A stretch of DNA of 64,000 nt from Chloroflexota bacterium (GCA_028873965.1 JAPPMU010000024.1:16503-80502); one strand, 5' to 3'; counted from the first letter of the stretch, positions 10,502 to 47,644 are shown. Notes: generated from the sequence alone by a model not told the origin. Program-made: numbers and translations.

Positions 10502-10503
10502 TG

Positions 10504-25361: not shown

Positions 25362-25444
25362 GGGGATTTCTGGGTTTCCGCTTGCGCGGGAACGACGTGC
25401 TATCCACAAGGAAACCCACCAACGCTGAACAGTTACCGGTGACG
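25362..25444 (+). repeat. third copy of the island-end module (REP hairpin + CTGAACAGTTAC + CGGTGACG)
   Basis: About 71/82 identical by hand alignment to 42750-42831. It ends with CTGAACAGTTAC (25425-25436) and CGGTGACG (25437-25444), which abuts the channel gene stop codon. Confidence 0.75.
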
Positions 25445-26669: not shown

Positions 26670-27108
26670 TCAGCCGGAAGGCAATACGGGCTCGCCGTCC
26701 TCGATCCTCAGCACGAACCGGTAGTCGTAGCCCAGGTCCAGAATGCGCTGGCCGCCTTTTCCCCGGTCAAACACGGCGATAACCTGCCGGACCACCGAGC
26801 CCGCCGCTTCCACGGCCTGGATGCACCGGATGATCGAATCGCCCGTGTAGCAGGTGTCGTCCACGATGGCCACCCGGGATCCGAGGTTGCCTTCGATGCG
26901 GTTGAGCATACCGTAGTCTTTTGCTTCGGCCCGCACGTAGAAACCGGCGCGCGGAACGCCGGATTGATGCACCACCGCCGTCACCACGGGAATCGCTGCC
27001 GTGGCCGGCCCGCCGACGCTGCGGACATCATCTACAAGCATGTCGCCAATTATCCGGCCAGCCAGGATACTGCCCTTCGCGCTGAGCATAAATGCGCGCC
27101 CGTTGACG
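26670..27108 (-). pseudogene. phosphoribosyltransferase (PyrE-like) gene, 3' portion, separated from its 5' portion by the island
   Basis: PRPP-binding motif VAIVDDTCYTGDSII. The frame stays open upstream of the track ATG back to the island junction (..TVTVNGRAFMLSAKG), and the N-terminal ~33 residues expected for this family are missing here. Confidence 0.8.
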
Positions 27109-27120
27109 GTAACTGTTCAG
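27101..27120. repeat. left island junction: direct repeat CGTTGACG + terminal inverted repeat GTAACTGTTCAG
   Basis: CGTTGACG (27101-27108) is identical to 42824-42831. GTAACTGTTCAG (27109-27120) is the exact reverse complement of 42812-42823. Confidence 0.9.
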
Positions 27121-27203
27121 ATTTGATGTGACCAGCCCACCCCAAAACCGTCATACCGGCGAAAGCAGAAGGATCTAAAGAGCGCACTTTCGAATCTGCC
27201 TTC

Positions 27204-27803
27204 ATGATGACCATCCGTCAAACGCGCCAAAGATCCAAATCGCGAGTGCGCGTCGACGGTGCGAATGCACGGAAAACGGCAAATGGGCAAAGCCGCGGCG
27301 CAACCGCGATTCAGAATATCACGCACAAGGGAGTAACAGGCAGCACCTCTGAATCCGATTTTGACTCAACTGAGACCAGCAACACCGTCGAAAAAGCTAA
27401 GCCAAAACGACGATCCGGAAAAGCGTCCAATCCGGCCGCCGGGAACGATGCCCCGACCAAGCCGAATCACGGGCGCACCTCCACATCCAAGACCCCAAGT
27501 CTTTCACGCGAGCAACGCAAGGCAGCCGGCCTTTGCGTAAGCTGCCCAAATCGCGCAGTCCAAGGCCAGACCCGCTGTCCGCCCTGTGCCAAAAAACATC
27601 TCCAATGGTACCGGAGTAAGCAAGCGGAAAAGAACGCGGGTTCCGCTATGCCTCCCGCGCAGGCTGGACGACCCAGAAAGACTGAAGAAGCGCGTGCCGA
27701 GCAGGAACGCGAGCCCCGCATCCAAGACGGAGCCGAGCGCGATGCTATCGAGGCCCGCATCCAAGAGTTGGAAAACGAGATCCAGCGGCTCCGCGAAGGC
27801 TGA
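27204..27803 (+). CDS. hypothetical basic protein with zinc-ribbon-like Cys motif and C-terminal coiled coil
   Basis: GLCVSCPNRAVQGQTRCPPCAKKH is followed by ERDAIEARIQELENEIQRLREG. The start is uncertain. Confidence 0.4.
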   Translation: MMTIRQTRQRSKSRVRVDGANARKTANGQSRGATAIQNITHKGVTGSTSESDFDSTETSNTVEKAKPKRRSGKASNPAAGNDAPTKPNHGRTSTSKTPSLSREQRKAAGLCVSCPNRAVQGQTRCPPCAKKHLQWYRSKQAEKNAGSAMPPAQAGRPRKTEEARAEQEREPRIQDGAERDAIEARIQELENEIQRLREG

Positions 27804-27952
27804 CGGCCACATCACGCCCCACCTCGCTTCGGCCCCTGACCGCGGTCACGACATCGCTTCGCCAAGCTGCGCCGGCACCTGGCGGCAGCCGGCGCACGCC
27901 ACTGTGAAAATTGATCCCGCCCAAGAAACTGCGACGGGGTCAGCGCAGCGAG

Positions 27953-28789
27953 CTACGTGGCCGGTTCGTCCAGACCGACTATACGCTCTTCGGACGCTGA
28001 CGTAGTGGTAGTGGACGCCGCCGCCGGCAGTTGCACGGGAGCCGGAGCTGGCCGGCTACGACGCGCCAGTGCCGCTATTGCCAGCGCCAGCGCGACCAGA
28101 GCCAACAGCGCAGCGATGCCGGCCGCTCCCAGCGTGTACAGGTCGTAATCATTCTCCGGCTCCACGGAGCGGCCCCGCGGCCCTTCCTCGCCTTCCGGCC
28201 CTCGTTCTCCCTGCGGTCCTTCTGGTCCCGGTGGTCCCGGTTCCCCGGGAGACCCAGCCGGCCCCGATGCGCCTTGTGGCCCTGCCGGACCCGGCGGCCC
28301 AGCGGGTCCGCGCTCACCCGGTGGCCCCGCAACCGCAGCCGGCTCCGGGGCTTGCGTAGGAGTAGGTCGCGCCGTGGCGGTTGGCACCGGACGCGGCGTT
28401 GGAGTCGCGGTGGCGGCGGGCTGTCCTGCGGAAGGAGCCCGCAGTTCCAAGTCGGCTTGCAGGAACCCGCTGGTCCAGCTCATCTCCACATCAGCCCTCT
28501 GGCCGTTGACCAGAAAGTGGATCGGGCCGCGGCCCCGGGGTTGGCTCACCTGCAAAGGCCCGAACCGTCCGTTGGCCCGCACCGTAATCCGGCTGAGCTC
28601 CGTGTCGCCTTGCATCGCCTGGATCACAGCGCCGGCCGTCGCCGGCACACCTTCCAGCCAGGCCGTCCCCGCCAGCACCATCGGCGGCAAGTTGGGCGCC
28701 TGCGCTGACGCCGGCGAACTGGGAAGCACCGTCAGCAAAGTCATCGTGATCACGGCCGGGATTACGATCAGCCACCGAGTTTGAATCAT
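27953..28789 (-). CDS. collagen-like triple-helix repeat protein, secreted, with C-terminal TM segment
   Basis: A signal peptide (start 28789 after GGAGGAAG) is followed by an uninterrupted G-X-Y run ([52 protein letters not shown]), then the hydrophobic [25 protein letters not shown]. Confidence 0.8.
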
Positions 28790-28941
28790 TGGTTCGCTTC
28801 CTCCCAACGTCGGGTTGACGAGTTGAGCCGAAACCTCAATATCTCGCACTATCTGATGATGAAAGCATTACTGACGACAAGAGAGGCAGAACGCCGTCAG
28901 ACGGTGGAGCGCTCCCCAATCCGGCGGAACGCGAGCGGCGT

Positions 28942-30888
28942 TTACTGGTTGAAATCCCAGACCGCGGCGCCCACGACGTAGTTTCCATCCGGCACAGTGT
29001 CATGAATGTTCATGGCGTGGGAGCTGCGCATAAAGTTCGCTATGCCGTCGTAATCATCGGCTGCGTTCTGTGATGAACGTTCATTGCGGAACAGGAATTC
29101 GATGTTGACGCTTCCAGTAGCCTGGGAATTGTCTATAGATGCGATTTTCCAGCCGTATCCCAAGCAGTTTTCGAAACCGCAACTCCGATCCGCCCACACG
29201 ACAATCCCGTCGGATAACCGGCTCATTATTTTGCGCATATCGTTGTTGTCGCTGGCGCTGGCCAGAGAGCCGGCCCCGCGGTACAGGCCCTGGAGTATTC
29301 CCTCCAAGCCGCCTCCGCTGTAAGCGATGTATTGATCAAACAGGATCACCTGCCCGCGCTGCCATCGCCACATCTCATAGCCCCGGTAATTGATCGCCTC
29401 GCCGTCTTGACCTTGCAGCTTGCTCCTGACGGAGGCCAGGTCAAAATCGCCGTGCAGCACGGTCAACTGTGCATCGTTCACAAAGGCAATTTCTGAAACA
29501 TTATCCGGATTGATGTCGTAGTGGTTCTTGATGAAGTCAATAGCGTCGAAAATCTGGCGTTCCTGCCGGCTGGGCAAGAAACTGCCGGATTCGGTTTGAC
29601 CCCACCGGACCAGCAAGATCCGGTGGCTATTTTGCGGCACCAAGTCAAACGTCGATTCCGGCTCACGGAGCGGGACCGGAGTGGCGGTTGGAGTAGGCGC
29701 TGGGGTGTTCGTTGGTCGCGCTGTTGCGGCCTGCGCCTGCGGGATAGTAGCAGCCGGCTGCGCCGGTACCAGACGCGGCGTTGCCGCCACCGCCCGGGGA
29801 GATTCAGTAGCGGTCGGCGCCCGCGCGGTTCCGCTGCCGCGGCGACCTCCGCTCTCGTTGTTCTGATTTGAGGAGCGGGAACTGGCGTCGTCCGAGTCAA
29901 CGAATTCCGCGGTGCCGTCGCCGACCACAAACTCACCGTCGGCTTTCACGTCGCCGATGTCCAAGTCAAGCGCGTATCCGGCAAATAATTCTTTAACAAA
30001 CTCGTCGATTCCCACGTCGCCTTCCGCTGCCGTCGCCGCGCGTTCCGAACTGAACTTCACGGCGTAGGAAGCCGGTATCAATTCGCTATCGTCGCTTTCC
30101 CTAATGGCAAACGCCAGCCCTTCACAACGTTCAATGACGCATTTTTCGGACAGGGCTGCAAATCGCAGCCACCCGTCGCCAACCTGATCCAAGATGCTTT
30201 TTAGCTCGCTATCCTCGGCGTCGGCGAGCTTCTCAGGTGCGCGGCTCTTCAGCGTGAGCATATCTTCCAAGTCATCCTGCCGTTCAACGGCCATAACGAC
30301 ATACCCGTCCTTCTCGAACAACGCCACGGCCGGCGGCTGTTGACCGGGGCATTCCCAGAGTTCAAAACCACGGTAGTCGTCGTCTTCGCAGTCCAGCCCG
30401 TCTTCCAGTTCTTCGCGAATGACATCGAACCGGAAATCACCCTGCGCAATTTCCAGCGTAACGTCCAAGTTCTCGTCGCCTATTACCGTTGCGCCAAGCG
30501 CAACGTCGTCATCGTCAATTTCGAGGGCTTTGTAAGTTTCCGAAGAAATCCCGAGGTCGTCGGAATCTTCATCTTCCTCCTCCAGCCATTCGATGTAGTC
30601 TTCGGGAATGTCGCCGCTCAAAGCCGCCTGATTGTCCCATATCACAACTGCCACGGCATTGCCCGGAATATAGGCCAGCACGTCGCTGCCCCCGGAAGCG
30701 CCGCCTCCACCGCCACCGCCAAACACGCCGGTCACCAGCAACACGACGACCACGATGACCACCACCAGCGCGGCGGCGCCACCTCCGGCGATCCCGAGCA
30801 TCTTGCCCGACATGGTGAAGCCGCCGCCGGCAGGGCTGCCTTGGGGCTGGGGCTGTTCGTTCCTTTCTTGGTCTCCATTGGCTGCCAT
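28942..30888 (-). CDS. large membrane-anchored extracytoplasmic protein with an internally duplicated domain
   Basis: ATG at 30888 follows AGGAGGAAC. There is an N-terminal TM helix plus a poly-Gly stretch, acidic regions and a Pro/Thr/Ala linker. Two related segments are present (GDFRFDVIREEL...YRGFELWE and GDFDLASVRSKL...YRGYEMWRW). Confidence 0.6.
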   Translation of the reverse strand: MAANGDQERNEQPQPQGSPAGGGFTMSGKMLGIAGGGAAALVVVIVVVVLLVTGVFGGGGGGGASGGSDVLAYIPGNAVAVVIWDNQAALSGDIPEDYIEWLEEEDEDSDDLGISSETYKALEIDDDDVALGATVIGDENLDVTLEIAQGDFRFDVIREELEDGLDCEDDDYRGFELWECPGQQPPAVALFEKDGYVVMAVERQDDLEDMLTLKSRAPEKLADAEDSELKSILDQVGDGWLRFAALSEKCVIERCEGLAFAIRESDDSELIPASYAVKFSSERAATAAEGDVGIDEFVKELFAGYALDLDIGDVKADGEFVVGDGTAEFVDSDDASSRSSNQNNESGGRRGSGTARAPTATESPRAVAATPRLVPAQPAATIPQAQAATARPTNTPAPTPTATPVPLREPESTFDLVPQNSHRILLVRWGQTESGSFLPSRQERQIFDAIDFIKNHYDINPDNVSEIAFVNDAQLTVLHGDFDLASVRSKLQGQDGEAINYRGYEMWRWQRGQVILFDQYIAYSGGGLEGILQGLYRGAGSLASASDNNDMRKIMSRLSDGIVVWADRSCGFENCLGYGWKIASIDNSQATGSVNIEFLFRNERSSQNAADDYDGIANFMRSSHAMNIHDTVPDGNYVVGAAVWDFNQ

Positions 30889-31023
30889 CGCAGGTTCCTC
30901 CTGGGTTGGACAAGTTTGCTGTCTGAATTTGGTGATGACCGGCGCGCCAACGGCGGCCACAAAACCGTCAGCGCGCCGGCCGTATTGGGACATGTCATCA
31001 AGGTGAAGTCGCTCGCGTAGTTA

Positions 31024-31446
31024 TCAAGGGGTTCCCGACTGACTGGCTGCCATCGCTTCCTGAATCTTCTCAACGAGCTCCCAGTCGTAGGCAACGTTTC
31101 GTAGCCTTACCCCCCGGCCATCGGTTCCGCGAATGGTCACCGTCTTGGTCAGCGAACCGGAGCGGGTTACGCCTGCTATCTCCTGATGCTCAAACTCGAC
31201 CATGCGTCTGCCGCTTCCCCACCCGGACACGATTACTCGCCTGGTGGTGATGATGCACTCGGCGTCTCTGAATTTCGCATACTGGATCATGCCGACCACC
31301 AGAATGATGAGACCTGGCAACAGGAAGAAGAAAAACCCGATGATCGCCCCGCACCCGATGGACATCCAATAGCTTTGGGTGTTCGGCGCGGCGACGTAGA
31401 TTACCTGCTCGTCGGGAGCAAGAGCGGTGAACATGCGGGAGCGCAT
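31024..31446 (-). CDS. bacterial PH-domain (YdbT/DUF304-like) membrane protein
   Basis: A two-TM hairpin is followed by ECIITTRRVIVSGWGSGRRMVEFEHQEIAGV. Confidence 0.5.
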   Translation of the reverse strand: MRSRMFTALAPDEQVIYVAAPNTQSYWMSIGCGAIIGFFFFLLPGLIILVVGMIQYAKFRDAECIITTRRVIVSGWGSGRRMVEFEHQEIAGVTRSGSLTKTVTIRGTDGRGVRLRNVAYDWELVEKIQEAMAASQSGTP

Positions 31447-31488
31447 GGGCGACTACCTCTTCTAGAGTTGGGACGCAACGGGGCGTAG

Positions 31489-31827
31489 TCAGGGCGCTGG
31501 GCCGTACTCGTTGTCGTCGTCGCTGCCCAACAACGTGAAGATGAACAGGATGACGGCTCCGAACAATGGGACCAAGCTCCACAACAGCGACCATCCGCTG
31601 CGGCCAGTGTCATGGAGCCTGCGGACCCACACCGCCCACGTTGGCAAAAACGTCGCCAGCGCATACAGGAATACCAGGACCATCGGCCACCAACTGCCGC
31701 TCGACAATCCCACCAGCAACAGGCCCCAAGTGATGACCGAGTTGAGCAGCACATAAGTCCAGTACTCCAGCCGAGTTGCTCTCCCGCTGAAGTCGGCATA
31801 TTTCAGGAAAGGCCCTATAAACGGCAT
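31489..31827 (-). CDS. DUF805-family inner membrane protein
   Basis: FSGRATRLEYWTYVL ... VRRLHDTGRSGW are DUF805 hallmarks. ATG at 31827 follows GGAGG. Confidence 0.7.
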   Translation of the reverse strand: MPFIGPFLKYADFSGRATRLEYWTYVLLNSVITWGLLLVGLSSGSWWPMVLVFLYALATFLPTWAVWVRRLHDTGRSGWSLLWSLVPLFGAVILFIFTLLGSDDDNEYGPAP

Positions 31828-32756
31828 GGTACGTACCTCCCAATCCAATGGCTCGCGGGCTCTCGACGCGACGCACTCAGGGGTGGTCCGCCGGCGCATC
31901 AACGCGTTGTGAAAGCGACATTCGCCGGCGCGCCAACCCGCGGAACATTTCCCAAATGTCGGGCGCGCGCTCAGGGATCACGGCCTTTTCGTCGCATAGT
32001 GAAGCAACGACTACCGGCATATCAGCGACGGGCCGCCACACCGCTATCCGGCATGGGTTTGGATGGGGCGCGAACGTAGTTGCCGGCGCGCGGGGCAACG
32101 ACTGCGATGAACAACGCAGGAAGTCCATCCGCAACGGCGTGGCCGGTTGGCGTTCCAACGGGGGTGAAGCTACCCGCGCGTTGTGAACGACCTGCCGCAA
32201 CGAGGATAGGCGGAACGCCCGGCGCGGCGGTTGCTTGACCAAACGGCCAAGTGGTAGCATGGACATAGTTCACCCCCCACGGGTGCGCTATGGGTCGCCG
32301 AGCCACTGCCAAGAGTCCGGCGACCTTTCGCTTGTTGGGGAGGGGAACCCGCCGCTACCGCCGGCGGTGGAACCTCTCCCACGATTCAGGATAAGGCTAC
32401 GTTGCAACAGTCGCCGGCGTCCCGATTTAGCGTGAGCCTCGCAGGAGAGGCACAAGGCCAAACCTGAACAAGGACTCACACGAATAGACGGGCTTCCGCC
32501 CGCGACTGTTGCGCGGCTAATTTCCCACACCAAGGCAGAATCGTCAAGCGACGAAACAGCGAAACTTGGAACTGGAACCGGGTCACCAGAAAACGGTGTC
32601 CCCGTTTTCTGACCACCCGGCAATCGCTTCCGCTGTCCATGCGAGCAGCCCAAGTTTCAGCGATGGAACCACTTAGAGGACCGAAGGTGCCTCACTGGCG
32701 CGCAACAGCTTGCTCGCCGGGCCAGCCCTCTCACGGCGGTCAATAAAATTTCGGGG

Positions 32757-34517
32757 ATGGCCGACAATCCCCTCAATGCCGTCAACCGCGGCGTCTACAT
32801 CTCCGACAACCTGCCGTTCCTGCAACGCCTGAACGACGAGTGCGTTGACCTCGTCTGCATCGACCCGCCCTTCGCAAAGAACGAAACCTTCGGGCGCAAG
32901 AACGACAAGTCGCCGGACCCCTTGAAGCCGCCGCTCTCCGACGTGGAGCGCGCCACCGAGCTGGCGCTGCTGCGACGCTGGGACATCAATAGCCCAGCAG
33001 ACGCCACGGCCAAAGGCATCGACTGGCCGGAGACGGCCTACAAGGACTTCTGGTCGTGGGAACGCGACGTTCATGAGGAATGGCTGCGGGACATCGAGGA
33101 CGACTACCCAGCCATCGCCAAGCTGATTGACGTGACGCGGGAGATCCACAATGACGGAACGGCGGCCTACCTGTGCTACATGGCCGTGCGGCTGTTCGAG
33201 ATCCGGCGGGTGCTGAAGGACACCGGCAGCCTGTACCTGCACTGCGACCACACGGCGGGCGCCTACCTGCGCCAACTGCTGGACGCCGTGCTTGGCAACG
33301 GCGCAGACGGAGCCCCTGGATTCCGCAACGAAATCAACTGGCGCAGTACATCCGCCCACAGCGACTCCAACCGTTACGGCGCCAACACCGAGACCATCCT
33401 GTTCTACACGAAGGCCAACCAATGGTACTGGCAAACTCAATTCCAAGGTTACGACGCCAAACACCTTGCTCGCTTCCATTACAAAGACCCCGACGGACGA
33501 GCCTGGCAGGACGACAACCTGACCGCCAAGGGGCTCGCCGGTGGCGGCTACGAGTACGAGTACAAGGGCGTCTCCTCACTATGGCGAGTACCGCTCTCGA
33601 CTATGCAAGAACTTGACCGCCAAGGACGCTTGCACTTCACCAGCAAAGGCGGCATCCGCCGTAAGCGCTACCTCGACGAATCCCTCGGCAGGCCCGTCCA
33701 ACAACTCTGGGACGACATCAGCCCCTTGAATTCACAGGCCAATGAGCGTACTGGCTACCCGACGCAGAAGCCCGTCGCCCTTGCCGAACGCATCATCAAG
33801 GCGTCCTGCCCCGAGGACGGCGTGGTACTCGACTGCTTCGCCGGCTGCGCTTACGTCGCCATCGCCGCCGAGCGGCTCGGCCGCAACTGGGTCGCCTGCG
33901 ACATCAACGCCCGCGCTTGGACCGTCTTCAAGCGCCAGTTCTCGAAACCCAAATTGGCGATGCTCACCTGCGCCGAGCCAATGCACAACCTGCAACCCGC
34001 CCTGATAGCCAACTCGGTCACCGTGCACGGCCCCGAAGAGCTGCCGATCCAGACCGTAGCCAGATCAGAACAACCAGCACCAGCGTTGAAGATACGCGAC
34101 AAGCCTCGCGGGTTCAAAGTGCCAGCCAGCATCATCCCTGAGCAGGAGATGCTCGGTATGTTGCTGGAACTCTCCAGCTACACCGCCTGGTGCTGCGGTT
34201 TTGCCAATCGGAAGTCCGATGGCACCATCGTCAAGACGCGACGCAACTTCCATCTGGACCATCTGGCACCAGTGTCCAAAGACGGCACCAGCCACGACAT
34301 ACAGAACCGCGCGCCGATGTGCCCCGACCACAACATCCGCAAGAGCAACCGCCAAATCGCGCTATCCCAGTATCGGCAAGAAATTGCCGACGCCGGCGAA
34401 CTGATGGTGGACTCCGTGGAAGAACTGATCAACCTGAATGAAGCCCTCGCCAGCGCCATGGTGATGTTCGGGGAAGCCTACGCACAGAGGTGCCCCCAGC
34501 GCCGGCTACCGATCTAG
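32757..34517 (+). CDS. DNA N4/N6-methyltransferase fused to a C-terminal HNH nuclease motif
   Basis: Motif IV CIDPPFAK lies near the N-terminus. SAM motif I VLDCFAGCAYVAIAAERLGRNWVACDIN lies later, giving a beta-class order. The HNH motif HLDHLAPVSKDGTSHDIQNRAPMCPDHNIRKSN is encoded at about 34251-34349. Confidence 0.8.
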   Translation: MADNPLNAVNRGVYISDNLPFLQRLNDECVDLVCIDPPFAKNETFGRKNDKSPDPLKPPLSDVERATELALLRRWDINSPADATAKGIDWPETAYKDFWSWERDVHEEWLRDIEDDYPAIAKLIDVTREIHNDGTAAYLCYMAVRLFEIRRVLKDTGSLYLHCDHTAGAYLRQLLDAVLGNGADGAPGFRNEINWRSTSAHSDSNRYGANTETILFYTKANQWYWQTQFQGYDAKHLARFHYKDPDGRAWQDDNLTAKGLAGGGYEYEYKGVSSLWRVPLSTMQELDRQGRLHFTSKGGIRRKRYLDESLGRPVQQLWDDISPLNSQANERTGYPTQKPVALAERIIKASCPEDGVVLDCFAGCAYVAIAAERLGRNWVACDINARAWTVFKRQFSKPKLAMLTCAEPMHNLQPALIANSVTVHGPEELPIQTVARSEQPAPALKIRDKPRGFKVPASIIPEQEMLGMLLELSSYTAWCCGFANRKSDGTIVKTRRNFHLDHLAPVSKDGTSHDIQNRAPMCPDHNIRKSNRQIALSQYRQEIADAGELMVDSVEELINLNEALASAMVMFGEAYAQRCPQRRLPI

Positions 34518-34769
34518 CCGTGCCGAAGCCATTGAAGCCGTCGGGAATAAGACTAGCGGTGGGCTGATCAATTTGGGATACCCCTGCCCCCGCTATCACG
34601 GGCCACTGTCCTGCACTGAAAAAACAGCAGGCCGTTACGAAACAGCCAACGCTGCGGGCGTTTCCAGACGCCGACCTCCCGGAATCCAAGAGGCGATTTC
34701 CTTGCGCGACTTCGGAAACTCTGCTCCTGAAAATAGCTGTGACAACGACTTCGAATCAGCGAGATCGCC

Positions 34770-35099
34770 TCAATCAGTTTCGGTCGTATCGACCCCCTCA
34801 TCCTTGAGACGCTGTTCCAACCCGATCATTCCGTTATCGTCTTGGACACCGTCGTCGTAAAGTTCCAGCCATTCTTGTTGGATAGCCCCCATTGCCCCGC
34901 TGAGTGCTTCTTCACAAGTTTCATACCTGCGAATGAGCAGGTTTGAGACGTAAGGCATATTCTTGTCGTACGCCACCGCTTCCCAGGGAAGGCCAGTGCG
35001 GCGATGTCGGATAACTATCCCAAATTGGGCAGTCTCCAACGTCAGTGATCGTTCTGTTCGCTTTTTGAGCGAAAAATCCTTTAGTTGTGGCACTGGCAT
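34770..35099 (-). CDS. hypothetical protein
   Basis: ATG at 35099 lies 5 nt after GGAGGAG. 109 aa. No family recognised. Confidence 0.45.
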   Translation of the reverse strand: MPVPQLKDFSLKKRTERSLTLETAQFGIVIRHRRTGLPWEAVAYDKNMPYVSNLLIRRYETCEEALSGAMGAIQQEWLELYDDGVQDDNGMIGLEQRLKDEGVDTTETD

Positions 35100-35356
35100 C
35101 GCGTCTCCTCCATGAGGCATTTTGGAGGTCTCAAGGCCTCTGACGCATATCATACCACCCGTGTCGCAAAAATCTGTTACCTGACGAGGCAAGTGCAGAA
35201 ATCTCAAGGGCCACTGAATTGCGAAATTCGTTGAATTAGCGGTCAATCTCGTCCCCAGCCACTCTAGAATTCGGAGTGGGGAAATCGCCTTTTGCGTCAC
35301 TAGCGGTTATAATTCAGCTACTCATCACACGTCTCACAGCCATCAAGGAGAAGCCT

Positions 35357-35605
35357 ATGACCACCACACAGGAAACTCAACCATACGACCTCGCCCAGCT
35401 CGTTGCTTATCACGAGATGCGTCAAAGCCTAGAAGACGACTACTTCGGTCGCTGGGTCGTTATCCACAACTGCGAACTTGCCGGCGACTACGAAACCTAC
35501 GACGAAGCGCGTGCCAGAACTCGAAAGGAAGGTTTCAACCTCCTGGACTGCCTGATTCAGAGAGTTGGCGTCGAGCCGCCTATCATCGTGTCCTACAGCT
35601 CCTGA
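35357..35605 (+). CDS. small antitoxin-like protein (DUF5678-like pattern)
   Basis: ATG at 35357 follows AAGGAGAAG. FGRWVVIHNCELAGDYETYDEARA fits the GxWVAI..gevv pattern. The stop lies 1 nt before the next ATG. Confidence 0.4.
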   Translation: MTTTQETQPYDLAQLVAYHEMRQSLEDDYFGRWVVIHNCELAGDYETYDEARARTRKEGFNLLDCLIQRVGVEPPIIVSYSS

Positions 35606-35606
35606 C

Positions 35607-35999
35607 ATGCCGCACGCCATTGCGGAGTACCACGCTCCGTCAATCGACTTCCTGATCGAGAACGGGCCTCATATCCAAGTACTCGTTGCGGAGCGCCCCA
35701 CCGTAGCGTTGCTGGATTCCGGGTCCCGCTTGTCCTACGTCGACATCGAACTCGCGGAAGACCTCGGAGCTCCTGAAACCGGTGCACATACGGTTCGCAG
35801 CGCAACCGGGCAAGAGAACCTCCCGTCCTTTGGCCTCAGTCTGCGAATTCCCGTGCTGGACTTATCCCTCGGCCCGCCACTCCCCGGAGTGCCGCTCAGA
35901 AAACAAGGGCACTTTTGGCAAGTGATAGTCGGCCGCGACGTCCTCAGCGCATACCTTATGACCATTGACTGGCGAACCGGCCTGATCCGCCTCAGCTGA
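35607..35999 (+). CDS. retropepsin-like (clan AA) aspartic protease
   Basis: Catalytic ALLDSGS motif and C-terminal VIVGRDVLSAYLMTIDWRTGLIRL. Confidence 0.65.
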   Translation: MPHAIAEYHAPSIDFLIENGPHIQVLVAERPTVALLDSGSRLSYVDIELAEDLGAPETGAHTVRSATGQENLPSFGLSLRIPVLDLSLGPPLPGVPLRKQGHFWQVIVGRDVLSAYLMTIDWRTGLIRLS

Positions 36000-36200
36000 C
36001 GGCACACCCTGCCGCCTGCCTGCTCTTTCCGCTAATCGCCCCCGCCGTCGCACGCCGGCCCCCTCCGGAAATCATCTACGTGATGATTGTTCCCATGCCA
36101 ACCCGTGCCCATCCAGTGACACCGTCCCGCAGCGCGGAAGTGCCCGACGCCGACAAAATGTAGACATAGCCGACCATCGGCACCGCCGTCCGCCACCGGC
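35841..36200 (+). repeat. ~350 bp direct repeat, copy 1 (3' end of the protease gene plus downstream sequence)
   Basis: Aligns by eye over most of its length with 38304-38640. Shared blocks include CTCAGAAAACAAGGGCACTTT, GACGGCACACCCTGCCGCCTGCC and GCGCGGAAGTGCCCGACGC. Confidence 0.75.
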
Positions 36201-36401
36201 GAGGGGCAGAAGGTTTCACTATCGGTGATCAATGACACTTGGCACATGACCAATTTATTCACGGGCTATAGCATGGAGAAGCGATTCCGGCGATGCGTGC
36301 CAGTTCGCTTAACACAGCGTCTAATACCATACCTTCCTCGGCACCGACACCGTTTTCCTGGGCGAAACACGCTCGACCGCGAGGTTACGTAGATTGTACG
36401 C

Positions 36402-38255
36402 TCAACCAACCCACCTCTCGGTAAGCAATACAAAAAATGTCAATACAATACCGGACCCCATCAGGACCGAGATCAACACGTCAGTCCTTCGCCTTCCGCT
36501 ATCGAAAAAACGCACTGCGTGACCGTCATGTTCATCCCGAAAGGCCAGCTTTGGCTCGCCGCGTTCTCTCTGAAGATCCCAGACATTCACCGTCAGGAAA
36601 ATAACCACCGTGGATAGCAAAATTGCAAACATATCGACCAAAACCCTTTGCCATCCACCCACGTCAAGCCGCGAAAACAGCCCGAACACCACAGTAATTC
36701 CAGCGAACGCCACCAACGCGAATAACTCCCCCAGTCCGATCCCTTGCCCCTTAGACCTGACTAGCATATCCAACTCTGATCTGGCGCTCACCAGCATCTG
36801 CACGTCCGCATCGCGAAGCGGACATACCCCAGCCAAGCAATCCATAGCTAGCTCGTAAGCCACCTGGAGTTCGTCGTCATCCCGCGAGCAGTCTATTCGC
36901 ATCACATGAGTCAAGATTTCCCCGCTCAATACATTCCGCTCCACTAACTGTTGAATACTCCGGTACACCACGAACGTCTGGTTTACCTCGGAGTTGATGC
37001 GCGTGACGAGCCGCGCCACCCTGAATGCCAGAAGCAACGTGAATACCGTCGCCGACAACGTGATCGTCTCAATATACCCCGCAGATGTCCACACCCATTG
37101 ATCGACGCCCACCCTCGGGAAAATCTCTTCCCTGACGTAAACAAACGCACCGCACAGCCAAAGCGCGACTAGTAGGCCTGAAAACCCGAACCTTCTCTCT
37201 GCTTCAAAGTTGACAAGAAGGTTTACCGTGATCACCGCGGCCGTCCCTACAACCAAGTATTGCCACGATGCCACGCCCACAAAGGCAAAACACCATAGCC
37301 ACAATAGCGAAAATAGAGGAGTCGCATATCCGAGAGCATTTATCCCGAGATTTCGCGTCTCCAAGTTCGCCTTTCTCCAAAACACACTCGGTACAGAATT
37401 CAAGAACAGGCCGCCCAGCACCGCGACCCCAACCGTTCCGAGTAATACGCTAGTGTTCGCATCCTCGTTGAAGCTGAACCCAATCATCAGGTTCAACGGA
37501 ACGCAGATTGCATTGGCAATGAGATTTACTGCCACTACGCAGAACACGTCAGCTCGACCATCATCCGGGGCGAGGCCCCGGTCCACCATATCGCGCCCGA
37601 CATCCACACTCCACCTGAATGCGTACGCCGCGCAAGCTGCGGCTACCGTAGCGGCAACGGCTAAACCCAAACCCCGCCCAATGGACCATGCGCTGTTCTC
37701 GTCTAATCCCCAGAACATCCCCGTCTGGGCAAATACCACGAATCCTATGCCTGCCAATCCGACGGACATCAATAACAACGTCGTAATAGTGACCGGACGA
37801 TACCTACGTTCTCGCCGAAACAGGTAAGCAGTCAACCAAATCACCCCTATGTGGTACAACTCGTAGACCACCGCCACGATGGAAATATCGACGTACCTCG
37901 CAGACAACGAAAACAACGCCAGCTCGAAATTGTTGAACACTATTGGTATGAACATCCAGCACGCGATTCGTCTGCGCACCAGCCTGCGGACCGCTCGGTC
38001 ACGAATTAGGTGCCGATACCATAGCCACAAAAACAGCCCGTAGCCAAAAGCCAACCCCAGCCTCCACCCTGCGTTGAATAGGAACGGGGCGGTAATACCT
38101 CCCGCCACAGCAATCATCAACGGGATCGTCGAATAGATCCCAACCGCTGCCGCCATGTATCCTAACGCCGCACGGTCCCCCGTAGCGCCCAAGCGAACAA
38201 AAGTAGCGAATCCAGCTACAACAGCGGAAACGCGGCGTTCCATCAATTCAAGCAT
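36402..38255 (-). CDS. large polytopic membrane protein of unknown function
   Basis: About 617 aa from ATG 38255. About 10 N-terminal TM helices (DMT-like appearance) are followed by a soluble helical segment and then 3-4 more TM helices. GC is lower than in the flanks. The N-terminal 57 codons of the track ORF are antisense to the repeat and are not credible. Confidence 0.6.
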   Translation of the reverse strand: MLELMERRVSAVVAGFATFVRLGATGDRAALGYMAAAVGIYSTIPLMIAVAGGITAPFLFNAGWRLGLAFGYGLFLWLWYRHLIRDRAVRRLVRRRIACWMFIPIVFNNFELALFSLSARYVDISIVAVVYELYHIGVIWLTAYLFRRERRYRPVTITTLLLMSVGLAGIGFVVFAQTGMFWGLDENSAWSIGRGLGLAVAATVAAACAAYAFRWSVDVGRDMVDRGLAPDDGRADVFCVVAVNLIANAICVPLNLMIGFSFNEDANTSVLLGTVGVAVLGGLFLNSVPSVFWRKANLETRNLGINALGYATPLFSLLWLWCFAFVGVASWQYLVVGTAAVITVNLLVNFEAERRFGFSGLLVALWLCGAFVYVREEIFPRVGVDQWVWTSAGYIETITLSATVFTLLLAFRVARLVTRINSEVNQTFVVYRSIQQLVERNVLSGEILTHVMRIDCSRDDDELQVAYELAMDCLAGVCPLRDADVQMLVSARSELDMLVRSKGQGIGLGELFALVAFAGITVVFGLFSRLDVGGWQRVLVDMFAILLSTVVIFLTVNVWDLQRERGEPKLAFRDEHDGHAVRFFDSGRRRTDVLISVLMGSGIVLTFFVLLTERWVG

Positions 38256-38303
38256 GGCAGCAGGGATTCTACCATCACTTACCTCACCTACCGCTGACCT
38301 CCG

Positions 38304-38460
38304 TTTGCGAATCCCTGCCCTGGATTTATCTGTCGGGCCGCCGCTTCCCTGAGTGTCACTCAGAAAACAAGGGCACTTTCGGCAAGTGATAGTCAGCTGC
38401 GACGTCCTCGGCGCATACCGGACCACTGATCAGCGAACCAGCCTGATTCGCCTCAGTTGA
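38304..38460 (+). pseudogene. duplicated 3' fragment of the retropepsin-like gene with an in-frame stop
   Basis: Reads LRIPALDLSVGPPLP-TGA-VSLRKQGHFRQVIVSCDVLGAYRTTDQRTSLIRLS-stop, against the intact copy LRIPVLDLSLGPPLPGVPLRKQGHFWQVIVGRDVLSAYLMTIDWRTGLIRLS. Confidence 0.7.
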
Positions 38461-38640
38461 CGGCACACCCTGCCGCCTGCCGGCCAGAGCCTGAAGTCAC
38501 CTACGTGGCGGTTATCCCCACGCCAACCGTGCCTATCTGGTGCCACCGACGCGCAGCGCGGAAGTGCCCGACGCAGGCACAACGTAGACATCGCCGACCA
38601 ACGGCGCATCCGGCCGCCCCATTGGCCAGGGGCGGCCAGT
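38304..38640 (+). repeat. ~350 bp direct repeat, copy 2
   Basis: See copy 1. This copy is diverged and carries a stop within the duplicated coding part. Confidence 0.75.
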
Positions 38641-38756
38641 TTTGTTGCCGGCGCCAGACGACCCGAATTTCCGCGCCAGAGCCGCGCGCGCAACCTCTGG
38701 ATAACTTTTGGGTACAATCCCGAGCACGACGATTCAGGACACCCGAAAGAACTACG

Positions 38757-39176
38757 ATGGACGCCGCTATCCCAAGTTCCCCTGTTCCCGACCATCCCCA
38801 GGAGACACCTGTGAACCAAACCATCATCATGCCCATTGGGATCATCGAGACGCCGACGCCGGCCGGCGCGATTTTTCGATTGACCACGCAAGGGCAGAAT
38901 GCGGAACTCCGTGCCGACGCCCACGTCACCGTCTGGCGGTACCACCCCAAGCAACTCGCCATGGCCAAGTTCACCGGACGCATTATCCAAGTGGACGACG
39001 ACACCGCCACCTTCGCCATCCTGCGCGCGGAAGTTGACGAGCGGTGGCCCGCCGAAATCAACCCGCTGGGCGCCGGAGCGCCGGTTTACCTGGCAATCAG
39101 AAGCTCCTTCGAGCCCGACACCAGCCGCACGGCGGTCACCGTCTCGCTGGCTGACGCCGAGGAAGGGAAAGAATGA
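38757..39176 (+). CDS. hypothetical protein
   Basis: 139 aa from ATG 38757. The upstream part of the track ORF lies in the repeat. No family recognised. Confidence 0.4.
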   Translation: MDAAIPSSPVPDHPQETPVNQTIIMPIGIIETPTPAGAIFRLTTQGQNAELRADAHVTVWRYHPKQLAMAKFTGRIIQVDDDTATFAILRAEVDERWPAEINPLGAGAPVYLAIRSSFEPDTSRTAVTVSLADAEEGKE

Positions 39177-39282
39177 ACCACACGCCAATGAGCAACGCTG
39201 CTACCGTTACAATGTTAAGGAATCCCTCGAACTGTGCTACCCTTGCGCCGGCAACTGAGAAAAGCGTCGGGGTACAAGACGA

Positions 39283-39987
39283 ATGCAGCAACAACCGCAC
39301 AACGCGACCAGCAGCGACCTTCACGATAGCGCAGGAGGTCCAGTACCCATGACCACGGCGGAACAAACCCCCGTCACCCACCTGCTGGACGGAATGTTGT
39401 GCTGCCAGAATTGCGGCGCTGCCATGGAGTCCACCGACTCGTCCCCGGGGCAAACGCCCATGTACGCGTGCCTCCGTAGCCAAGGAGGCTGCGGCGCCAC
39501 GGCAATCCCCGCCGAACCGCTCGTCCAGTTGGTGGTCACTACGGTGATCCGAGCTGCGTTGGAAGGCGGCAACGCCCAGCAAGTGGCCGAGATAGTCCAA
39601 GAAGATACGCGGGAACGCATCATAGCGTACGACGAAGGCGGGTACACGCCGGAGACGAGGCTGTCACCAGACCTTTCCATTGCCGTCCCGGAAATGAGGG
39701 GAACGCGTCAGCCGGATGCGGCGGAGGACATCGAGCCGCTGCGCAGGCTCAACCGGTACTGGAATCTCACCGGGGATCGAGGGCAGATCGCAGAGTACGC
39801 GCTGGACCCGGACACCTACCTACGTCCCAGCAACGTTCGAACCACCAGGGACATCATCGAAACCGCAGTGGACGAGGTTAGTGTCGGTCCAAGATCAGCC
39901 ATCATCAGGTACAGGTTCGCCATGCCCCCGGGCAGCGGGGACCAAGGGAAGTTCCAAGAAGTGGTGGACTTGGCGAGCCGCCGATGA
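39283..39987 (+). CDS. stand-alone recombinase zinc-ribbon-like protein (large serine recombinase C-terminal module without catalytic domain)
   Basis: LLDGMLCCQNCGAAMESTD...MYACLRSQGGCGATAIPAEPLVQLV matches the zinc beta-ribbon of large serine recombinases. No resolvase domain is present. The start is uncertain (39283 or 39349). Confidence 0.5.
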   Translation: MQQQPHNATSSDLHDSAGGPVPMTTAEQTPVTHLLDGMLCCQNCGAAMESTDSSPGQTPMYACLRSQGGCGATAIPAEPLVQLVVTTVIRAALEGGNAQQVAEIVQEDTRERIIAYDEGGYTPETRLSPDLSIAVPEMRGTRQPDAAEDIEPLRRLNRYWNLTGDRGQIAEYALDPDTYLRPSNVRTTRDIIETAVDEVSVGPRSAIIRYRFAMPPGSGDQGKFQEVVDLASRR

Positions 39988-40019
39988 AGAACCGTCGCAG
40001 TCAGTGAGGTCTGCCCCGA

Positions 40020-40424
40020 CTACGTTTGAGGCAGAAGGGTGAACACCGGCTCCGCGACCTCGCCGCTGGAAACCCACACCACACGGCAGAGCGCCGATTC
40101 ATCTTCCAGCACCTTGGAACCGGACACCGCCAGGAACAGGTAGTCCCGCACACCAGCCGGTGTTTCAGCTGGTCGGAGGTGCCCACCAGCCAGCTGATCA
40201 ATCATTTGGTTTTCCAACCGAGATCCTTTCTCAATGGTGTCGTCGGGCAACACGTGGAGGGGCATGGTCCCCTGGGTTGTCCGGTACAGCTCCAGCGACT
40301 CGGCGGTCCAGTCCTCAACTATCGCCCCGAAAACCGCCTGGCTGATTTGGCGAAAAAGATCAGTGCCGTCACCAGCCGGAATGTCGCGCAATCTACCGGG
40401 ATGACCGGCTTCGCGTATGCTCAT
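40020..40424 (-). CDS. hypothetical protein, divergent from the XRE regulator
   Basis: 134 aa ORF. No family recognised. Confidence 0.4.
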   Translation of the reverse strand: MSIREAGHPGRLRDIPAGDGTDLFRQISQAVFGAIVEDWTAESLELYRTTQGTMPLHVLPDDTIEKGSRLENQMIDQLAGGHLRPAETPAGVRDYLFLAVSGSKVLEDESALCRVVWVSSGEVAEPVFTLLPQT

Positions 40425-40561
40425 TTCTCAATAAAATCCAAACGAGAATTCAGGCAGATACATGGCCCGCAGACGGGAAATCTGCTAACATGGATTATAG
40501 CATTTTCGGGGCGAAAACTGAACTGGGAAGCGACAGCAAAAAAGGCCAAGAGGCAACCCCT

Positions 40562-41035
40562 ATGAGCGAACTTACGGCGACGACCGCCGCTATTCCTGAC
40601 GAAACCCGAGGCGGACCAACCTCAGGCAGCGACTCGCTGCCTTTGGGCGAGATACTCAGGCGAATGCGGGGCGAAAGAAGCCTGCGGGACGTGGAGCGGG
40701 ATACCGGCGTGGCCAACTCTCATCTGTGCAACGTCGAAAGGGGCAGCCAACAGCCCGGTCTGAAGTTCCTGGGCCGCATGGCGGACTACTACCAGACCAG
40801 CGTGGCTGAGATCATCCGCCAGGCGGAACTCCTCAGGGACGCCCAGGACAACCCCCATCGGCTGATGGCGGCCGACGTGGAGCGCTCGTACCGGTTCGTG
40901 GCCGAGGACCCCAGGCTTCAACCCTGGGAAGAGCCGGAGGAAGCACTATCCATTGATGCCAAGAGGCAGGTCGTGAGGACGTACGAACTCCTGACGGGAA
41001 GGACGCTGCTGGGGTCTGCGGCAAGCGTCCCATGA
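40562..41035 (+). CDS. XRE-family helix-turn-helix regulator
   Basis: LGEILRRMRGERSLRDVERDTGVANSHLCNVERGSQQP is an HTH_3 pattern. It lies directly upstream of the recombinase. Confidence 0.75.
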   Translation: MSELTATTAAIPDETRGGPTSGSDSLPLGEILRRMRGERSLRDVERDTGVANSHLCNVERGSQQPGLKFLGRMADYYQTSVAEIIRQAELLRDAQDNPHRLMAADVERSYRFVAEDPRLQPWEEPEEALSIDAKRQVVRTYELLTGRTLLGSAASVP

Positions 41036-41092
41036 GGTGATCAATCGCCGCGCCGGCACTCGGCGAAACCTGCGGAACGAAGGAGGACAGCC

Positions 41093-42718
41093 ATGCCCAT
41101 GAAAAAGAGGAAACCGGAAGGCGAACCCATCAGGTACGCCTTGTACGTCAGGTTTTCAAGCTGGCAGCAAGACGGTGAAAACTCCAAAGAGGGACAGCTC
41201 AACGCCCTGCGCGCGTACGTTGAGTCCAAAGGCGGCGTGATCGTAAAGATCTACATCGACGAGGGCGTGAGCGGCAAGCGCGACGACCGCAAAGAGCTCA
41301 ACGAGTTGATGCGGGACGCCGGAAACCGCATACGCCCCTTTGACGAAGTCCTGGTCTGGAAATTCGACAGGTTCGGGCGCCGGGCCAGCACCATGGACCG
41401 CCGCATCACCGAGCTGGAAGAGCGCGGCATCGGCATCACCGCCATCCAACAACCCATACAGGGGAAACCCTCCGTAGTAAGGTTGTTCAGGACCATGCTG
41501 GGCGGCTTCGCCGAGTACGTCAGCGACAACATGGGCGAGGACATTTCCCGCGGCAGAAAAACTTCCGCCGCACACGGCGTCTGGACCAGTTCGTCCGTGC
41601 CGTTCGGATACAAAAAGGACTACCGGATGGACCGGAACAAAATGCGTCCGTTTCTGGTGCCGGACCCCGACACGGCGCCAATAGTCCAGCGGGTGTTCAG
41701 CCTGTACCTTGACGGCTCCAGCACGTCAAAGATCGCCAGCGTCTTCCGGGAAGAGGACGTGCCTGGCCCCACCGAAAAGCCGTGGACCCCGAAACGGGTC
41801 TCGCAAATGCTGAAAAACATCGAATACGCCGGCTTCATCCAATTCGGTCAACGCTCCAAGTACGAGGATGAAGTGGCGCTCACAACCGCGCCCGCGATGG
41901 AAATTGTGAGCTTGGAAGACTACAACCTGGCGCAGGACATAATGGTGTCCCGCAATCCGACGAACAGGCACCCCCGGGAAATCGCCAGCGTCCATCTGCT
42001 GAGCGGACTGACCCACTGCGGTAGGGGCAGCCACAAGATGAGCCCCACGGGCGGGGAGCGCAGCTACTACAACTGCAACGGAAGGCGCAACGGGATATGC
42101 CCGGACTGCGACACGCCCAACGTCAGGGCGGAACGGCTGGATGCCTTGGTCCTCCAGCACGTACTGGACAGGATCATCATCAAGGAGAACACGGAACGGA
42201 TTCTCGCCATCGTAGCCAGCAGCCAGACGGAAGCCACGATGGAAGTGGAAGAGGAACTGAAGAACGTCAATTTGGAAATTGAGGGCCAGAAGCAAGCGAG
42301 AAAGAACCTGCTCAAGCTGGTGGAGGAAGAATACGCGGTGTCGGCGGACATCTCCGAAAGGCTGAGTGAAATCAGGGAGAGCCTGACGCGGCTCGAATCA
42401 AGGGCGCTTGAGGCAAGGGCCAAGGTGTCTAACGAAAAAGCCCTCATCTCAAATCCGGACAAGGTTCTTGCCTACGCGAAGAAACTCGAGACCTATCTCC
42501 GCGGCACCAACCTGGACCTCACCAAGGCAATCCTGAATGATCTGATAGTGCAGGTCAAAGTCTATCCCGGAGAGCAGAAGGACACCGCAAACGTGGTCAT
42601 CACATACCGGTTGCCTACGCCGCCCACGGGCTGGACCGAGAAGACCGACATGGAAGTGATCGCCCTGCGGAAAAATGTGCGCTCTTTAGAGACACCCGCC
42701 AAAGCCGGTATCCAGTAA
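41093..42718 (+). CDS. large serine recombinase
   Basis: The resolvase catalytic domain is present (YALYVRFSSWQQ..., IYIDEGVSGKRDDRKEL, VLVWKFDRFGRR). It is followed by the recombinase domain, a zinc ribbon (CGRGSHKM...YYNCNGRRNGICPDC) and a long coiled coil. The 3' end runs into a REP unit (..PAKAGIQ). Confidence 0.9.
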   Translation: MPMKKRKPEGEPIRYALYVRFSSWQQDGENSKEGQLNALRAYVESKGGVIVKIYIDEGVSGKRDDRKELNELMRDAGNRIRPFDEVLVWKFDRFGRRASTMDRRITELEERGIGITAIQQPIQGKPSVVRLFRTMLGGFAEYVSDNMGEDISRGRKTSAAHGVWTSSSVPFGYKKDYRMDRNKMRPFLVPDPDTAPIVQRVFSLYLDGSSTSKIASVFREEDVPGPTEKPWTPKRVSQMLKNIEYAGFIQFGQRSKYEDEVALTTAPAMEIVSLEDYNLAQDIMVSRNPTNRHPREIASVHLLSGLTHCGRGSHKMSPTGGERSYYNCNGRRNGICPDCDTPNVRAERLDALVLQHVLDRIIIKENTERILAIVASSQTEATMEVEEELKNVNLEIEGQKQARKNLLKLVEEEYAVSADISERLSEIRESLTRLESRALEARAKVSNEKALISNPDKVLAYAKKLETYLRGTNLDLTKAILNDLIVQVKVYPGEQKDTANVVITYRLPTPPTGWTEKTDMEVIALRKNVRSLETPAKAGIQ

Positions 42719-42811
42719 ATCCTTGCTGTGCTCACGTTTGCCAGTGGCAGGGATTTCTGGGTTCCTGCTTTCGCAGGAACGACGTGTAATCCACCAGAAA
42801 ACCCATCAACA

Positions 42812-42831
42812 CTGAACAGTTACCGTTGACG
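42812..42831. repeat. right island junction: terminal inverted repeat CTGAACAGTTAC + direct repeat CGTTGACG
   Basis: Exact counterparts of 27109-27120 (inverted) and 27101-27108 (direct). Confidence 0.9.
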
Positions 42832-42923
42832 TACCAGTCGATGGTCTGGCCATCCTCCAGGGCAAAGCGCCCTCGGTGAATATGCGGCCGCACCAGTTCG
42901 GCGATGGCTTGCAGGTTGCTCAT
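42824..42923 (-). pseudogene. phosphoribosyltransferase gene, 5' portion
   Basis: MSNLQAIAELVRPHIHRGRFALEDGQTIDWYVNG is the expected PRT N-terminus (G-F-x-L-x-x-G ... Y-v-d). The reading then runs into the island terminus. The GTC AAC GG codon phase is identical at both junctions. Confidence 0.8.
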
Positions 42924-47575: not shown

Positions 47576-47644
47576 GGTGGGGTATTCTGTGGACGGTTGC
47601 CGGCAGCGTCTAGCGACTAATCGTACCATTTGGAGGCATCACCC

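Follow-up and report, generated by a model that had tools for sequence, protein, structure and literature searches.

The window analyzed here, a stretch of 64,000 nucleotides from a Chloroflexota bacterium (GCA_028873965.1 JAPPMU010000024.1:16503-80502), holds an orotate phosphoribosyltransferase (PRT)-like gene whose two pieces are separated by 15.7 kb that include the gene for a large serine recombinase. An earlier note on this DNA had interpreted the 15.7 kb as a single serine-recombinase island that splits the gene and would restore it in frame on excision. The gene is indeed split, and removal of everything between its pieces restores the open reading frame (ORF), but our comparisons make it highly probable that two nested mobile elements are present: a 176-bp element inserted in the PRT gene and, within a hairpin of that element resembling repetitive extragenic palindromic (REP) sequences, a 15,539-bp island. 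It is then the 176-bp element, not the island, that interrupts the gene. Comparison with other sequences shows which insertion came first, where each element begins and ends, the AAAGC core shared by the junctions, both occupancy states and an intact recombinase. The parts are laid out along the window as follows.

26670..27108, minus strand: 3' part of the split orotate-PRT-like gene, covering residues about 34-176 and the stop codon
27101..27108: left-hand 8-bp direct repeat, CGTTGACG
27109..27166: outer 176-bp element, left arm: an inverted terminus that starts GTAA (27109-27128), then the 5' half of REP-like hairpin 1 (27148-27161), with the AAAGC core (27162-27166) closing the arm
27167..42705: island proper with the serine recombinase (15,539 bp)
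42706..42823: outer element, right arm: REP-like hairpin 1 is completed by its 3' half at 42706-42715, followed by REP-like hairpin 2 at 42757-42784 and by an inverted terminus at 42804-42823
42824..42831: right copy of the 8-bp direct repeat CGTTGACG
42832..42923, minus strand: 5' part of the PRT-like gene, reaching from residue 1 to residue 30 and two bases into codon 31

Sister assemblies were found by exact look-up of the proteins encoded by the flanking genes. The source scaffold is ENA SAMN13943215 scaffold_35 (328,944 bp), and its sisters, with flanks 99.98% identical, are ENA SAMN13943213 scaffold_925 and NCBI GCA_028874955.1 contig JAPPGY010000045.1 (L022/L025, L023/L026). Both sisters carry just 176 bp at the site, with window positions 27109-27166 joined to 42706-42823. 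This island-free allele retains both outer termini and both copies of CGTTGACG, and its PRT gene is still split by 184 extra bp. The join (...CCGGCGAAAGCCGGTATCC...) completes a perfect hairpin, CCGTCATACCGGC-GAAA-GCCGGTATCCAG; in the long form the same hairpin is divided, its 5' half ending at 27166 and its 3' half starting at 42706, with AAAGC on both sides (27162-27166 and 42701-42705). The island junctions at AAAGC are thus offset inward from the break in the gene, by 58 bp on the left and 118 bp on the right. The recombinase does not appear to use the 12-bp termini and 8-bp repeat, which belong to the separate 176-bp element.

The two forms can also be traced in a set of reads. Logan contig SRR10996925_4118 (15,594 bp) corresponds to window 27137-42730. 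Taking 27167 as the first and 42700 as the last island-specific base, branch points at k=31 are expected at 27137 (27167-30) and 42730 (42700+30), which are the two ends of this contig. Because the contig ends at the predicted branch points, we conclude that the short form is real and coexists with the long form in one read set (SRR10996925).

Related islands at other loci place the boundaries independently of the PRT gene. We obtained 65 homologues of the recombinase at E < 1e-30. Those that reach the C-terminus are conserved to ...LRKNxRSL-x-x-P-x-(K/Q/H)-x-G and then continue into unrelated tails, for total lengths of 541-828 aa, a pattern that looks like an ORF crossing the element boundary into host DNA. 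At the right end, the nucleotide sequences of the window and of three islands whose recombinases are 78-89% identical agree through AAAGCnGGAAT and diverge after it. Three independent right junctions (window, L031 and L036) read AAAGCnGG(A/T)ATCCAG, which is the 3' half of the canonical hairpin, the L031/L036 junction being AAAGCnGGAATCCAG. At the left end of a further related island, L035, similarity to the window starts at 27159 (GCnAAAGC, 7 nt, then TCTAAAGAGCGCACTTTCGAATC), and the sequence upstream is unrelated. The relatives share neither the outer 58 bp nor the outer 118 bp, save for the REP-like hairpin sequence in the latter, and none of them adjoins a PRT gene. As similarity among related islands stops at AAAGC on both sides, we take the island to be 15,539 bp long and the short form to be its unoccupied or excised target.

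The island ends and the hairpin share a common symmetry. Positions 27174-27187 and 42677-42690 form perfect 14-bp inverted arms, which together with the outer termini are the two longest inverted repeats in the region. As we read the circularized island, each arm lies 10 nt from the first two A's of AAAGC, and the hairpin is symmetric about the same AA. Arms and hairpin would accordingly have the geometry of a serine-integrase attP and attB, with the following predicted sites.

27174..27187: P' arm TCTAAAGAGCGCAC of the predicted attP, conserved at the left end of L035
42677..42690: P arm GTGCGCTCTTTAGA of the predicted attP, within the last recombinase codons; conserved in L027, L031 and L036, and in L028 with mismatches
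27135-27200: predicted inner attL
42665-42730: predicted inner attR
Circular junction: predicted inner attP, ...GTGCGCTCTTTAGAGACACCCGCCAAAGCAGAAGGATCTAAAGAGCGCAC...
Unoccupied hairpin: predicted inner attB, GCCCACCCCAAAACCGTCATACCGGCGAAAGCCGGTATCCAGTAAATCC

The P' arm did not appear within the 10 kb fetched for each of L027, L028 and L031, whose islands reach past that stretch.

The following sequence of events would account for the arrangement. A non-autonomous 176-bp element first entered codons 31-34 of the orotate-PRT-like gene, duplicating CGTTGACG, and the 15,539-bp island then integrated in the loop of that element's first REP-like hairpin. The attP of the circular island would comprise the two perfect 14-bp inverted arms, each 10 nt from the central AA in the AAAGC core, which falls at the extreme end of the recombinase ORF, while the hairpin CCGTCATACCGGC-GAAA-GCCGGTATCCAG, symmetric about the same AA, would serve as attB. 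By analogy with known large serine recombinases, recombinase dimers bound to attP and attB would cleave at the central dinucleotide, which by symmetry is AA, and rejoin the strands after rotation. Strand exchange would leave AAAGC at both junctions and supply the last four recombinase codons and the stop from the host side; in the window, these codons and the stop do lie on the target (hairpin) side of the junction. Excision, presumably with a directionality factor, would regenerate the hairpin and the 176-bp element. Because that element stays behind, loss of the island would not repair the PRT gene, which remains broken in the sister assemblies. The analogy once drawn with gene-restoring elements (skin/sigK, SPbeta/spsM, phi10403S/comK) breaks down at this point, since excision would restore a REP-like hairpin rather than a gene, and the island-free allele keeps the 176-bp element and the 8-bp repeat.

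Several observations weigh against this interpretation. The circular junction (attP) was not seen, and the Logan contig has no branch at 27162; circles, if present, are therefore rare in the SRR10996925 sample. The metagenome collection gave no match in a scan with the outer end pattern or in one with the inner P' arm. The right flank of L027 and L028, GGAATGACGG, does not fit the canonical hairpin orientation, and it is a coding sequence rather than a REP hairpin that contains the left junction of L035. Deletion between the 5-bp AAAGC repeats could, in principle, also have produced the unoccupied form, and some dependence between the two sister assemblies is possible. As a separate observation, the right junctions of L027 and L028, just past the recombinase stop, carry AAAGCnGGAATGACG, a hairpin arm with its flank opposite to that of the 13 canonical copies.

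Those 13 copies, found in the window and in four related genomes (L008, L011, L027, L031), define the hairpin family (c/t)CGTCATTCCnGCGAAAGCnGGAATCCAG that appears to be the island's target. The family is common to several genomes of the SAR202 type. Copies often form inverted pairs in intergenic DNA, such as 877-958 and 26397-26476, and positions in the window include 877-905, 926-958, 22252-22281, 22335-22363, 26397-26425 and 26448-26476; the 176-bp element contains two of these REP-like hairpins. As short imperfect palindromes that are dispersed, mostly intergenic and arranged in inverted pairs, they have the properties of REP/REPIN-type sequences, and no Rfam family matches them. A perfect tandem repeat of a 21-nt unit (2.8 copies, CCGGAATGACGGTTCGAGGGC) extends from the flank of one REP-like hairpin at 26460-26517, between the PRT and ion-channel genes.

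The 8-bp direct repeat and the perfect 12-bp inverted termini described in the earlier note are both present, the former at 27101-27108 and 42824-42831, the latter as GTAACTGTTCAG at 27109-27120 and its reverse complement at 42812-42823. On the plus strand, the left outer junction reads GCGCGCC-CGTTGACG-GTAACTGTTCAG (27094-27120) and the right one CTGAACAGTTAC-CGTTGACG-TACCAG (42812-42837). Removing 27109-42831 in silico yields, as had been claimed, a minus-strand ORF of 531 nt (176 aa). The restored protein aligns end to end with structures of short orotate PRTs (2p1z, E 2e-25; M. tuberculosis 5hkf, E 1e-23), and the two gene pieces are contiguous against intact homologues, with no gap across the junction. 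It scores 87.9 bits against TIGR00336 pyrE (cut-off 106.8) and 21.4 bits against Pfam Pribosyltran (cut-off 26.3). As the pyrE-model score is under its cut-off although solved short orotate PRTs match end to end, 'OPRT-like' would be the safest name for the split gene. In public records the 3' piece appears only as a 139-aa ORF from an internal ATG (P0037); the 5' piece as assembled continues into the small element, giving a 63-aa ORF (42732-42923).

By scanning one genome per species, we identified the uninterrupted homologue, at 80-87% identity and in the same neighborhood, in 12 Dehalococcoidia/SAR202 genomes. The 176-aa ORF is open in 11 of these and has a 1-nt gap in the twelfth (in the long-read genome L011, at 10001-10527, such a gap breaks the frame of the PRT homologue and is probably a sequencing error). 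The ion-channel gene (window 25445-26275) is on one side of the PRT gene in all twelve and directly adjoins it in 11, and the gamma-glutamyl transpeptidase gene (43656-45407) is on the other side in all twelve. The empty-site junction TGGTACGTCAACGGGCGCGCATT is nearly invariant among them, and CGTTGACG occurs there as a single copy; in the window's genome the outer empty site would read ...GCGCGCCCGTTGACGTACCAGTCG... Nucleotide similarity between the window and these relatives ends at 27107-27108 and, where the alignment reaches the other junction (L005, L009), restarts at 42823-42826.

Among 37 homologues, the restored PRT has no private substitutions at otherwise invariant positions. This lack of decay implies either that the disruption is recent, as is probable, or that the test is too weak. 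Public data hold about 80 homologous PRT proteins, and the split gene is confined to this lineage; a collection of 5.8 billion proteins contains none identical (100%) to the intact PRT, the closest being 90%. One candidate for a second interrupted allele (P0066, 175 aa, 79% coverage; L018) was rejected as a frameshift in a long-read contig.

The outer element has the structure of a small repeat in its own right. Its inverted repeat reaches 28 nt at 86%, the 176 bp fold at -41.3 kcal/mol (z = -6.4), and, with up to two mismatches allowed, the window has three occurrences of the terminal 15-mer ACGGTAACTGTTCAG, against 0.05 expected. An exact 13-mer of the terminus was also found in the related genome L008. 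The window contains a further copy of one end.

25363..25445: 83 nt that match the right end of the outer element (hairpin 2 and the terminus) at 87%, a second but incomplete copy with flank CGGTGACG

This partial copy abuts the stop codon of the ion-channel gene and has no recombinase with it, evidence of a separate outer element that argues for the nested arrangement. Synteny with all twelve relatives breaks at the partial copy, which suggests that a rearrangement occurred there; to the left of the break the window holds the housekeeping genes prfA, prmC, purL and purQ. The targets of the two copies are nearly alike, with CGTTGACG followed by TACCAG at one and CGGTGACG followed by T-CAG at the other (7/8 identical, similarity continuing beyond).

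How the outer element arose is a separate question, on which our assessment is divided. That it is a miniature derivative of an IS66-like DDE transposon, with the 8-bp repeat an ordinary target-site duplication and the transposase encoded elsewhere in the genome, has a little less than an even chance in our judgment; this concerns the outer element alone and is compatible with the nested insertions. IS66 elements have 20-30-bp inverted repeats starting GTAAGCG and make 8-bp duplications (PMC11946415). The GTAA start, the 28-nt inverted repeat, the 8-bp direct repeat and the strong hairpin fold of the 176-bp element all fit such a derivative, as do at least two copies within 64 kb and the 13-mer in L008. 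The likeness ends after GTAA, however, the terminus being GTAACTG rather than GTAAGCG; no cognate transposase was found within the 64-kb window, and flanks that are 7/8 identical at the two copies indicate a target specificity higher than is expected of IS66. The earlier note had offered a transposon as its alternative, which comes closer to the truth for the outer element, except that the terminus is GTAA..., not a CTG end of the IS4/Tn5 type.

A less probable origin, which we hold to be unlikely, is a non-autonomous 'mini-att' mobilized in trans by a site-specific (serine) recombinase whose gene lies elsewhere. It is suggested by a 15-bp dyad around TG, by the near-identical targets and by the host codons being kept in phase. 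The 8-bp repeat reads CGT-TG-ACG, and the joined outer ends would form a perfect 15-bp dyad around TG, the hypothetical circle junction (42823 to 27109) being the palindrome CTGAACAGTTACCGT-TG-ACGGTAACTGTTCAG in the sequence CTGAACAGTTACCGTTGACGGTAACTGTTCAG. If this were the case, the 176-bp element would reversibly switch the PRT gene, and the genome would contain two nested serine-recombinase systems, one of them homing to REP-like hairpins. We leave the remaining weight to origins of other kinds.

The same outer dyad could instead belong to the recombinase found here, in which case attP would be the 15-bp palindrome around TG, attB would lie in the PRT gene, the 15.7 kb would be one island whose excision restores the gene, and the 176-bp form of the sisters would be an internal deletion that removed the recombinase. 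A perfect dyad around a non-palindromic TG is typical serine-integrase geometry, about 100 bp separate the recombinase gene from the right terminus, and the restored ORF is free of private substitutions at otherwise invariant positions. We nonetheless regard this as improbable, and as largely refuted by where similarity among related islands ends: islands with recombinases 74-89% identical share nothing with 27109-27158, nor with 42712-42823 apart from the REP-like hairpin, their similarity ends at AAAGC on both sides, and the C-terminal tails of the homologues diverge at that very codon. The supposed deletion scar, moreover, would be a perfect copy of a dispersed hairpin family, and no island accompanies the second, partial copy of the outer end. 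That the full island alone exists, with the 176-bp form produced during assembly by a short-cut through the graph across the island, is more doubtful still, to the point of being negligible: this form was seen in assembled sequence, and the two assemblies that have it may stem from the same sample, but the join shares 5 bp, far under any assembler k-mer, so that reads must span it, and a third, independent read set (Logan SRR10996925) breaks at both predicted k=31 branch points.

Within the nested arrangement, the large serine recombinase at the island's right end would be the enzyme responsible for its integration. The recombinase and the XRE regulator had been placed at this end in the earlier note, and their domains bear this out. 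The recombinase combines Resolvase (PF00239, 3.1e-27), Recombinase (PF07508, 1.7e-16) and Zn_ribbon_recom (PF13408, 6.6e-10) domains in one protein, which together with the short shared core AAAGC, the dyad attP and the unoccupied hairpin site is characteristic of large serine recombinases. It matches the PHROG 95 integrase at 7.5e-97 and the XisF model below the cut-off (E 1.3e-33), and is less than 30% identical to any annotated phage or plasmid integrase; no relatives of it were found among viral contigs. In the region of the N-terminal Y-x-R-x-S motif, its ALYVRFSSWQQ aligns with AIYTRVSTTNQ of the TP901-1 integrase (3bvp), and the serine aligned with that enzyme's catalytic serine is presumably the nucleophile. 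Related islands have five genes at the right end in common.

38811..39176, plus strand: conserved 121-aa protein, function unassigned
39283..39987, plus strand: paralogue of the C-terminal part of the recombinase (zinc ribbon and following region), with no catalytic domain
40020..40424, minus strand: conserved 134-aa protein, function unassigned
40490..41035, plus strand: XRE-type helix-turn-helix (HTH) regulator (the public call starts at 40562)
41093..42718, plus strand: large serine recombinase, 541 aa

The zinc-ribbon paralogue is 22% identical to the recombinase (E 4e-10). As it is kept at 55-71% in every related island (L027, L028, L031), it would seem to be a working gene, possibly a regulator of the recombinase. 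Candidates for the excision directionality factor are the 121-aa and 134-aa proteins, the zinc-ribbon paralogue and a 199-aa protein encoded at the opposite end. The rest of the island is occupied by this last gene and by cargo.

27204..27803, plus strand: 199-aa basic protein with a CxxC...CxxC zinc ribbon and coiled-coil tail, just inside the left junction
27953-28849, minus strand: collagen-repeat protein with signal-like and anchor-like segments
28942-30993, minus strand: 683-aa anchored acidic protein
31024..31902, minus strand: 140-aa membrane protein and DUF805 membrane protein
32757..34517, plus strand: N6/N4 DNA methyltransferase whose C-terminal region is HNH-like (Pfam HNH score under its cut-off)
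35357..35999, plus strand: 82-aa protein, then 130-aa protein with a weak retropepsin-like (aspartyl-protease) match
36402..38426, minus strand: polytopic membrane protein, about 14 hydrophobic segments, no family match

The cargo inventory of the earlier note was broadly right for the methylase, the collagen-repeat protein and the membrane protein of about 14 segments, whereas the matches to HNH and aspartyl protease are weak. On the cargo, PADLOC recognized no defense system apart from the methyltransferase, its sole match, and neither conjugation genes nor a transposase were found in the island. We rejected a prophage, as PHROG matches comprise only the integrase, methylase, HNH and collagen repeats, and no phage structural genes. 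A half-site match in a viral collection (L017) was likewise set aside, since it lacks island proteins and about one such match is expected by chance. The 199-aa protein has a homologue at 74% identity in L035. In the circular form the recombinase would read in frame into it to give 749 aa, which is probably incidental; an exhaustive search returned about 100 relatives of the 199-aa protein, each of them short and without a recombinase fusion. Direct repeats of about 360 bp (84-88% identical) at 35831-36194 and 38295-38618 flank the gene for the 14-segment membrane protein, the latter copy including residual sequence from the retropepsin-like gene's 3' end, and the membrane-protein gene looks like a cassette gained by recombination.

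The island is a member of a family in uncultured Chloroflexota in which the right-end module is constant and the cargo varies. Closely related recombinases (L027, L028, L031, L035, L036 and the window) occur at unrelated loci that share a short motif around the core dinucleotide. The cargo of L027 (1-5984) includes Kiwa (KwaA/KwaB) and a 1327-aa Eco57I-type methylase, and that of L028 (1-7245) a TIR-domain protein, a PemK toxin and an IS607-like unit (a MerR/Resolvase gene plus a short Cas12f1-like_TNB fragment). Given the Kiwa, TIR-domain, PemK and Eco57I-type methylase genes of these relatives, the family may move defense genes in this group.

As judged from its sequence, the island is a large-serine-recombinase integrative element, known in kind, with unusual details and nothing surprising in kind. 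In M. tuberculosis, phiRv1 is a large-serine-recombinase element that integrates into the dispersed REP13E12 repeat, which is roughly a kilobase long and has coding potential. It likewise has its attB in repeated sequence, with several landing sites and no dependence on a host gene; its kilobase target differs from the REP-like hairpin of about 29 nt used here, and no phage genes were found in our island. Dehalococcoides has serine-recombinase genomic islands at ssrA, in the same bacterial class and also with accessory cargo, although their target is the tmRNA gene rather than a REP-like hairpin. The elements in sigK (skin, SpoIVCA), spsM (SPbeta, SprA), comK (A118 and phi10403S) and fdxN (XisF) use the same recombinase family and lie within a host ORF. 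They differ in that the recombinase junctions of our island do not coincide with the gene break, and no developmental or regulatory link was seen.

Insertion sequences that target REP sequences include IS1397 and ISKpn1 of the IS3 family. IS110/IS1111 elements also insert into REP-type sequences (PMC11187229). Such elements are alike in using extragenic palindromic hairpins as a 'safe' multi-copy target; their DDE or DEDD transposases (the DEDD ones RNA-guided) contrast with the large serine recombinase and 15 kb of cargo seen here. Closest in behavior are the multi-targeting large serine recombinases described by Durrant et al. 2022, a clade in which DUF4368 is common (PMC10083194), with related enzymes at unrelated loci and a short motif around the core dinucleotide. 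Here, DUF4368 gave no match, the motif is a structured hairpin repeat rather than AT-rich, and the crossover falls in the last codons of the recombinase.

A clade of large serine recombinases in uncultured marine Chloroflexota appears to home to a dispersed hairpin repeat. With the crossover in the enzyme's own last codons, each integration would give the recombinase a different tail. A serine integrase with a compact, structured target of about 30 bp might be of use in genome engineering. More generally, terminal repeats beside a recombinase gene need not be its sites, and nested insertions can mimic a gene-restoring element.

Other parts of the window also vary among relatives. A methyltransferase (316 aa) and an HTH/BsaWI-like restriction enzyme (365 aa), at about 45409-47630, are not at the same position in most of the twelve, and nucleotide similarity skips 45500-47630 in all except L001; in GCA_028874955.1 the restriction gene is called at just 171 aa. 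At about 49850-54416 lie 4-5 genes (631, 293, 256 with DUF6339, and 260 aa) without counterpart in the relatives, and this block could be another variable or defense-type insertion. Finally, 118 nt at 12022-12139, adjoining tRNA-Leu(CAA) (11793-11879), are 83% identical to L005 10586-10702, which lies between the PRT and ion-channel genes of that genome; in the window the stretch is 13 kb away, and it may be another small dispersed repeat.

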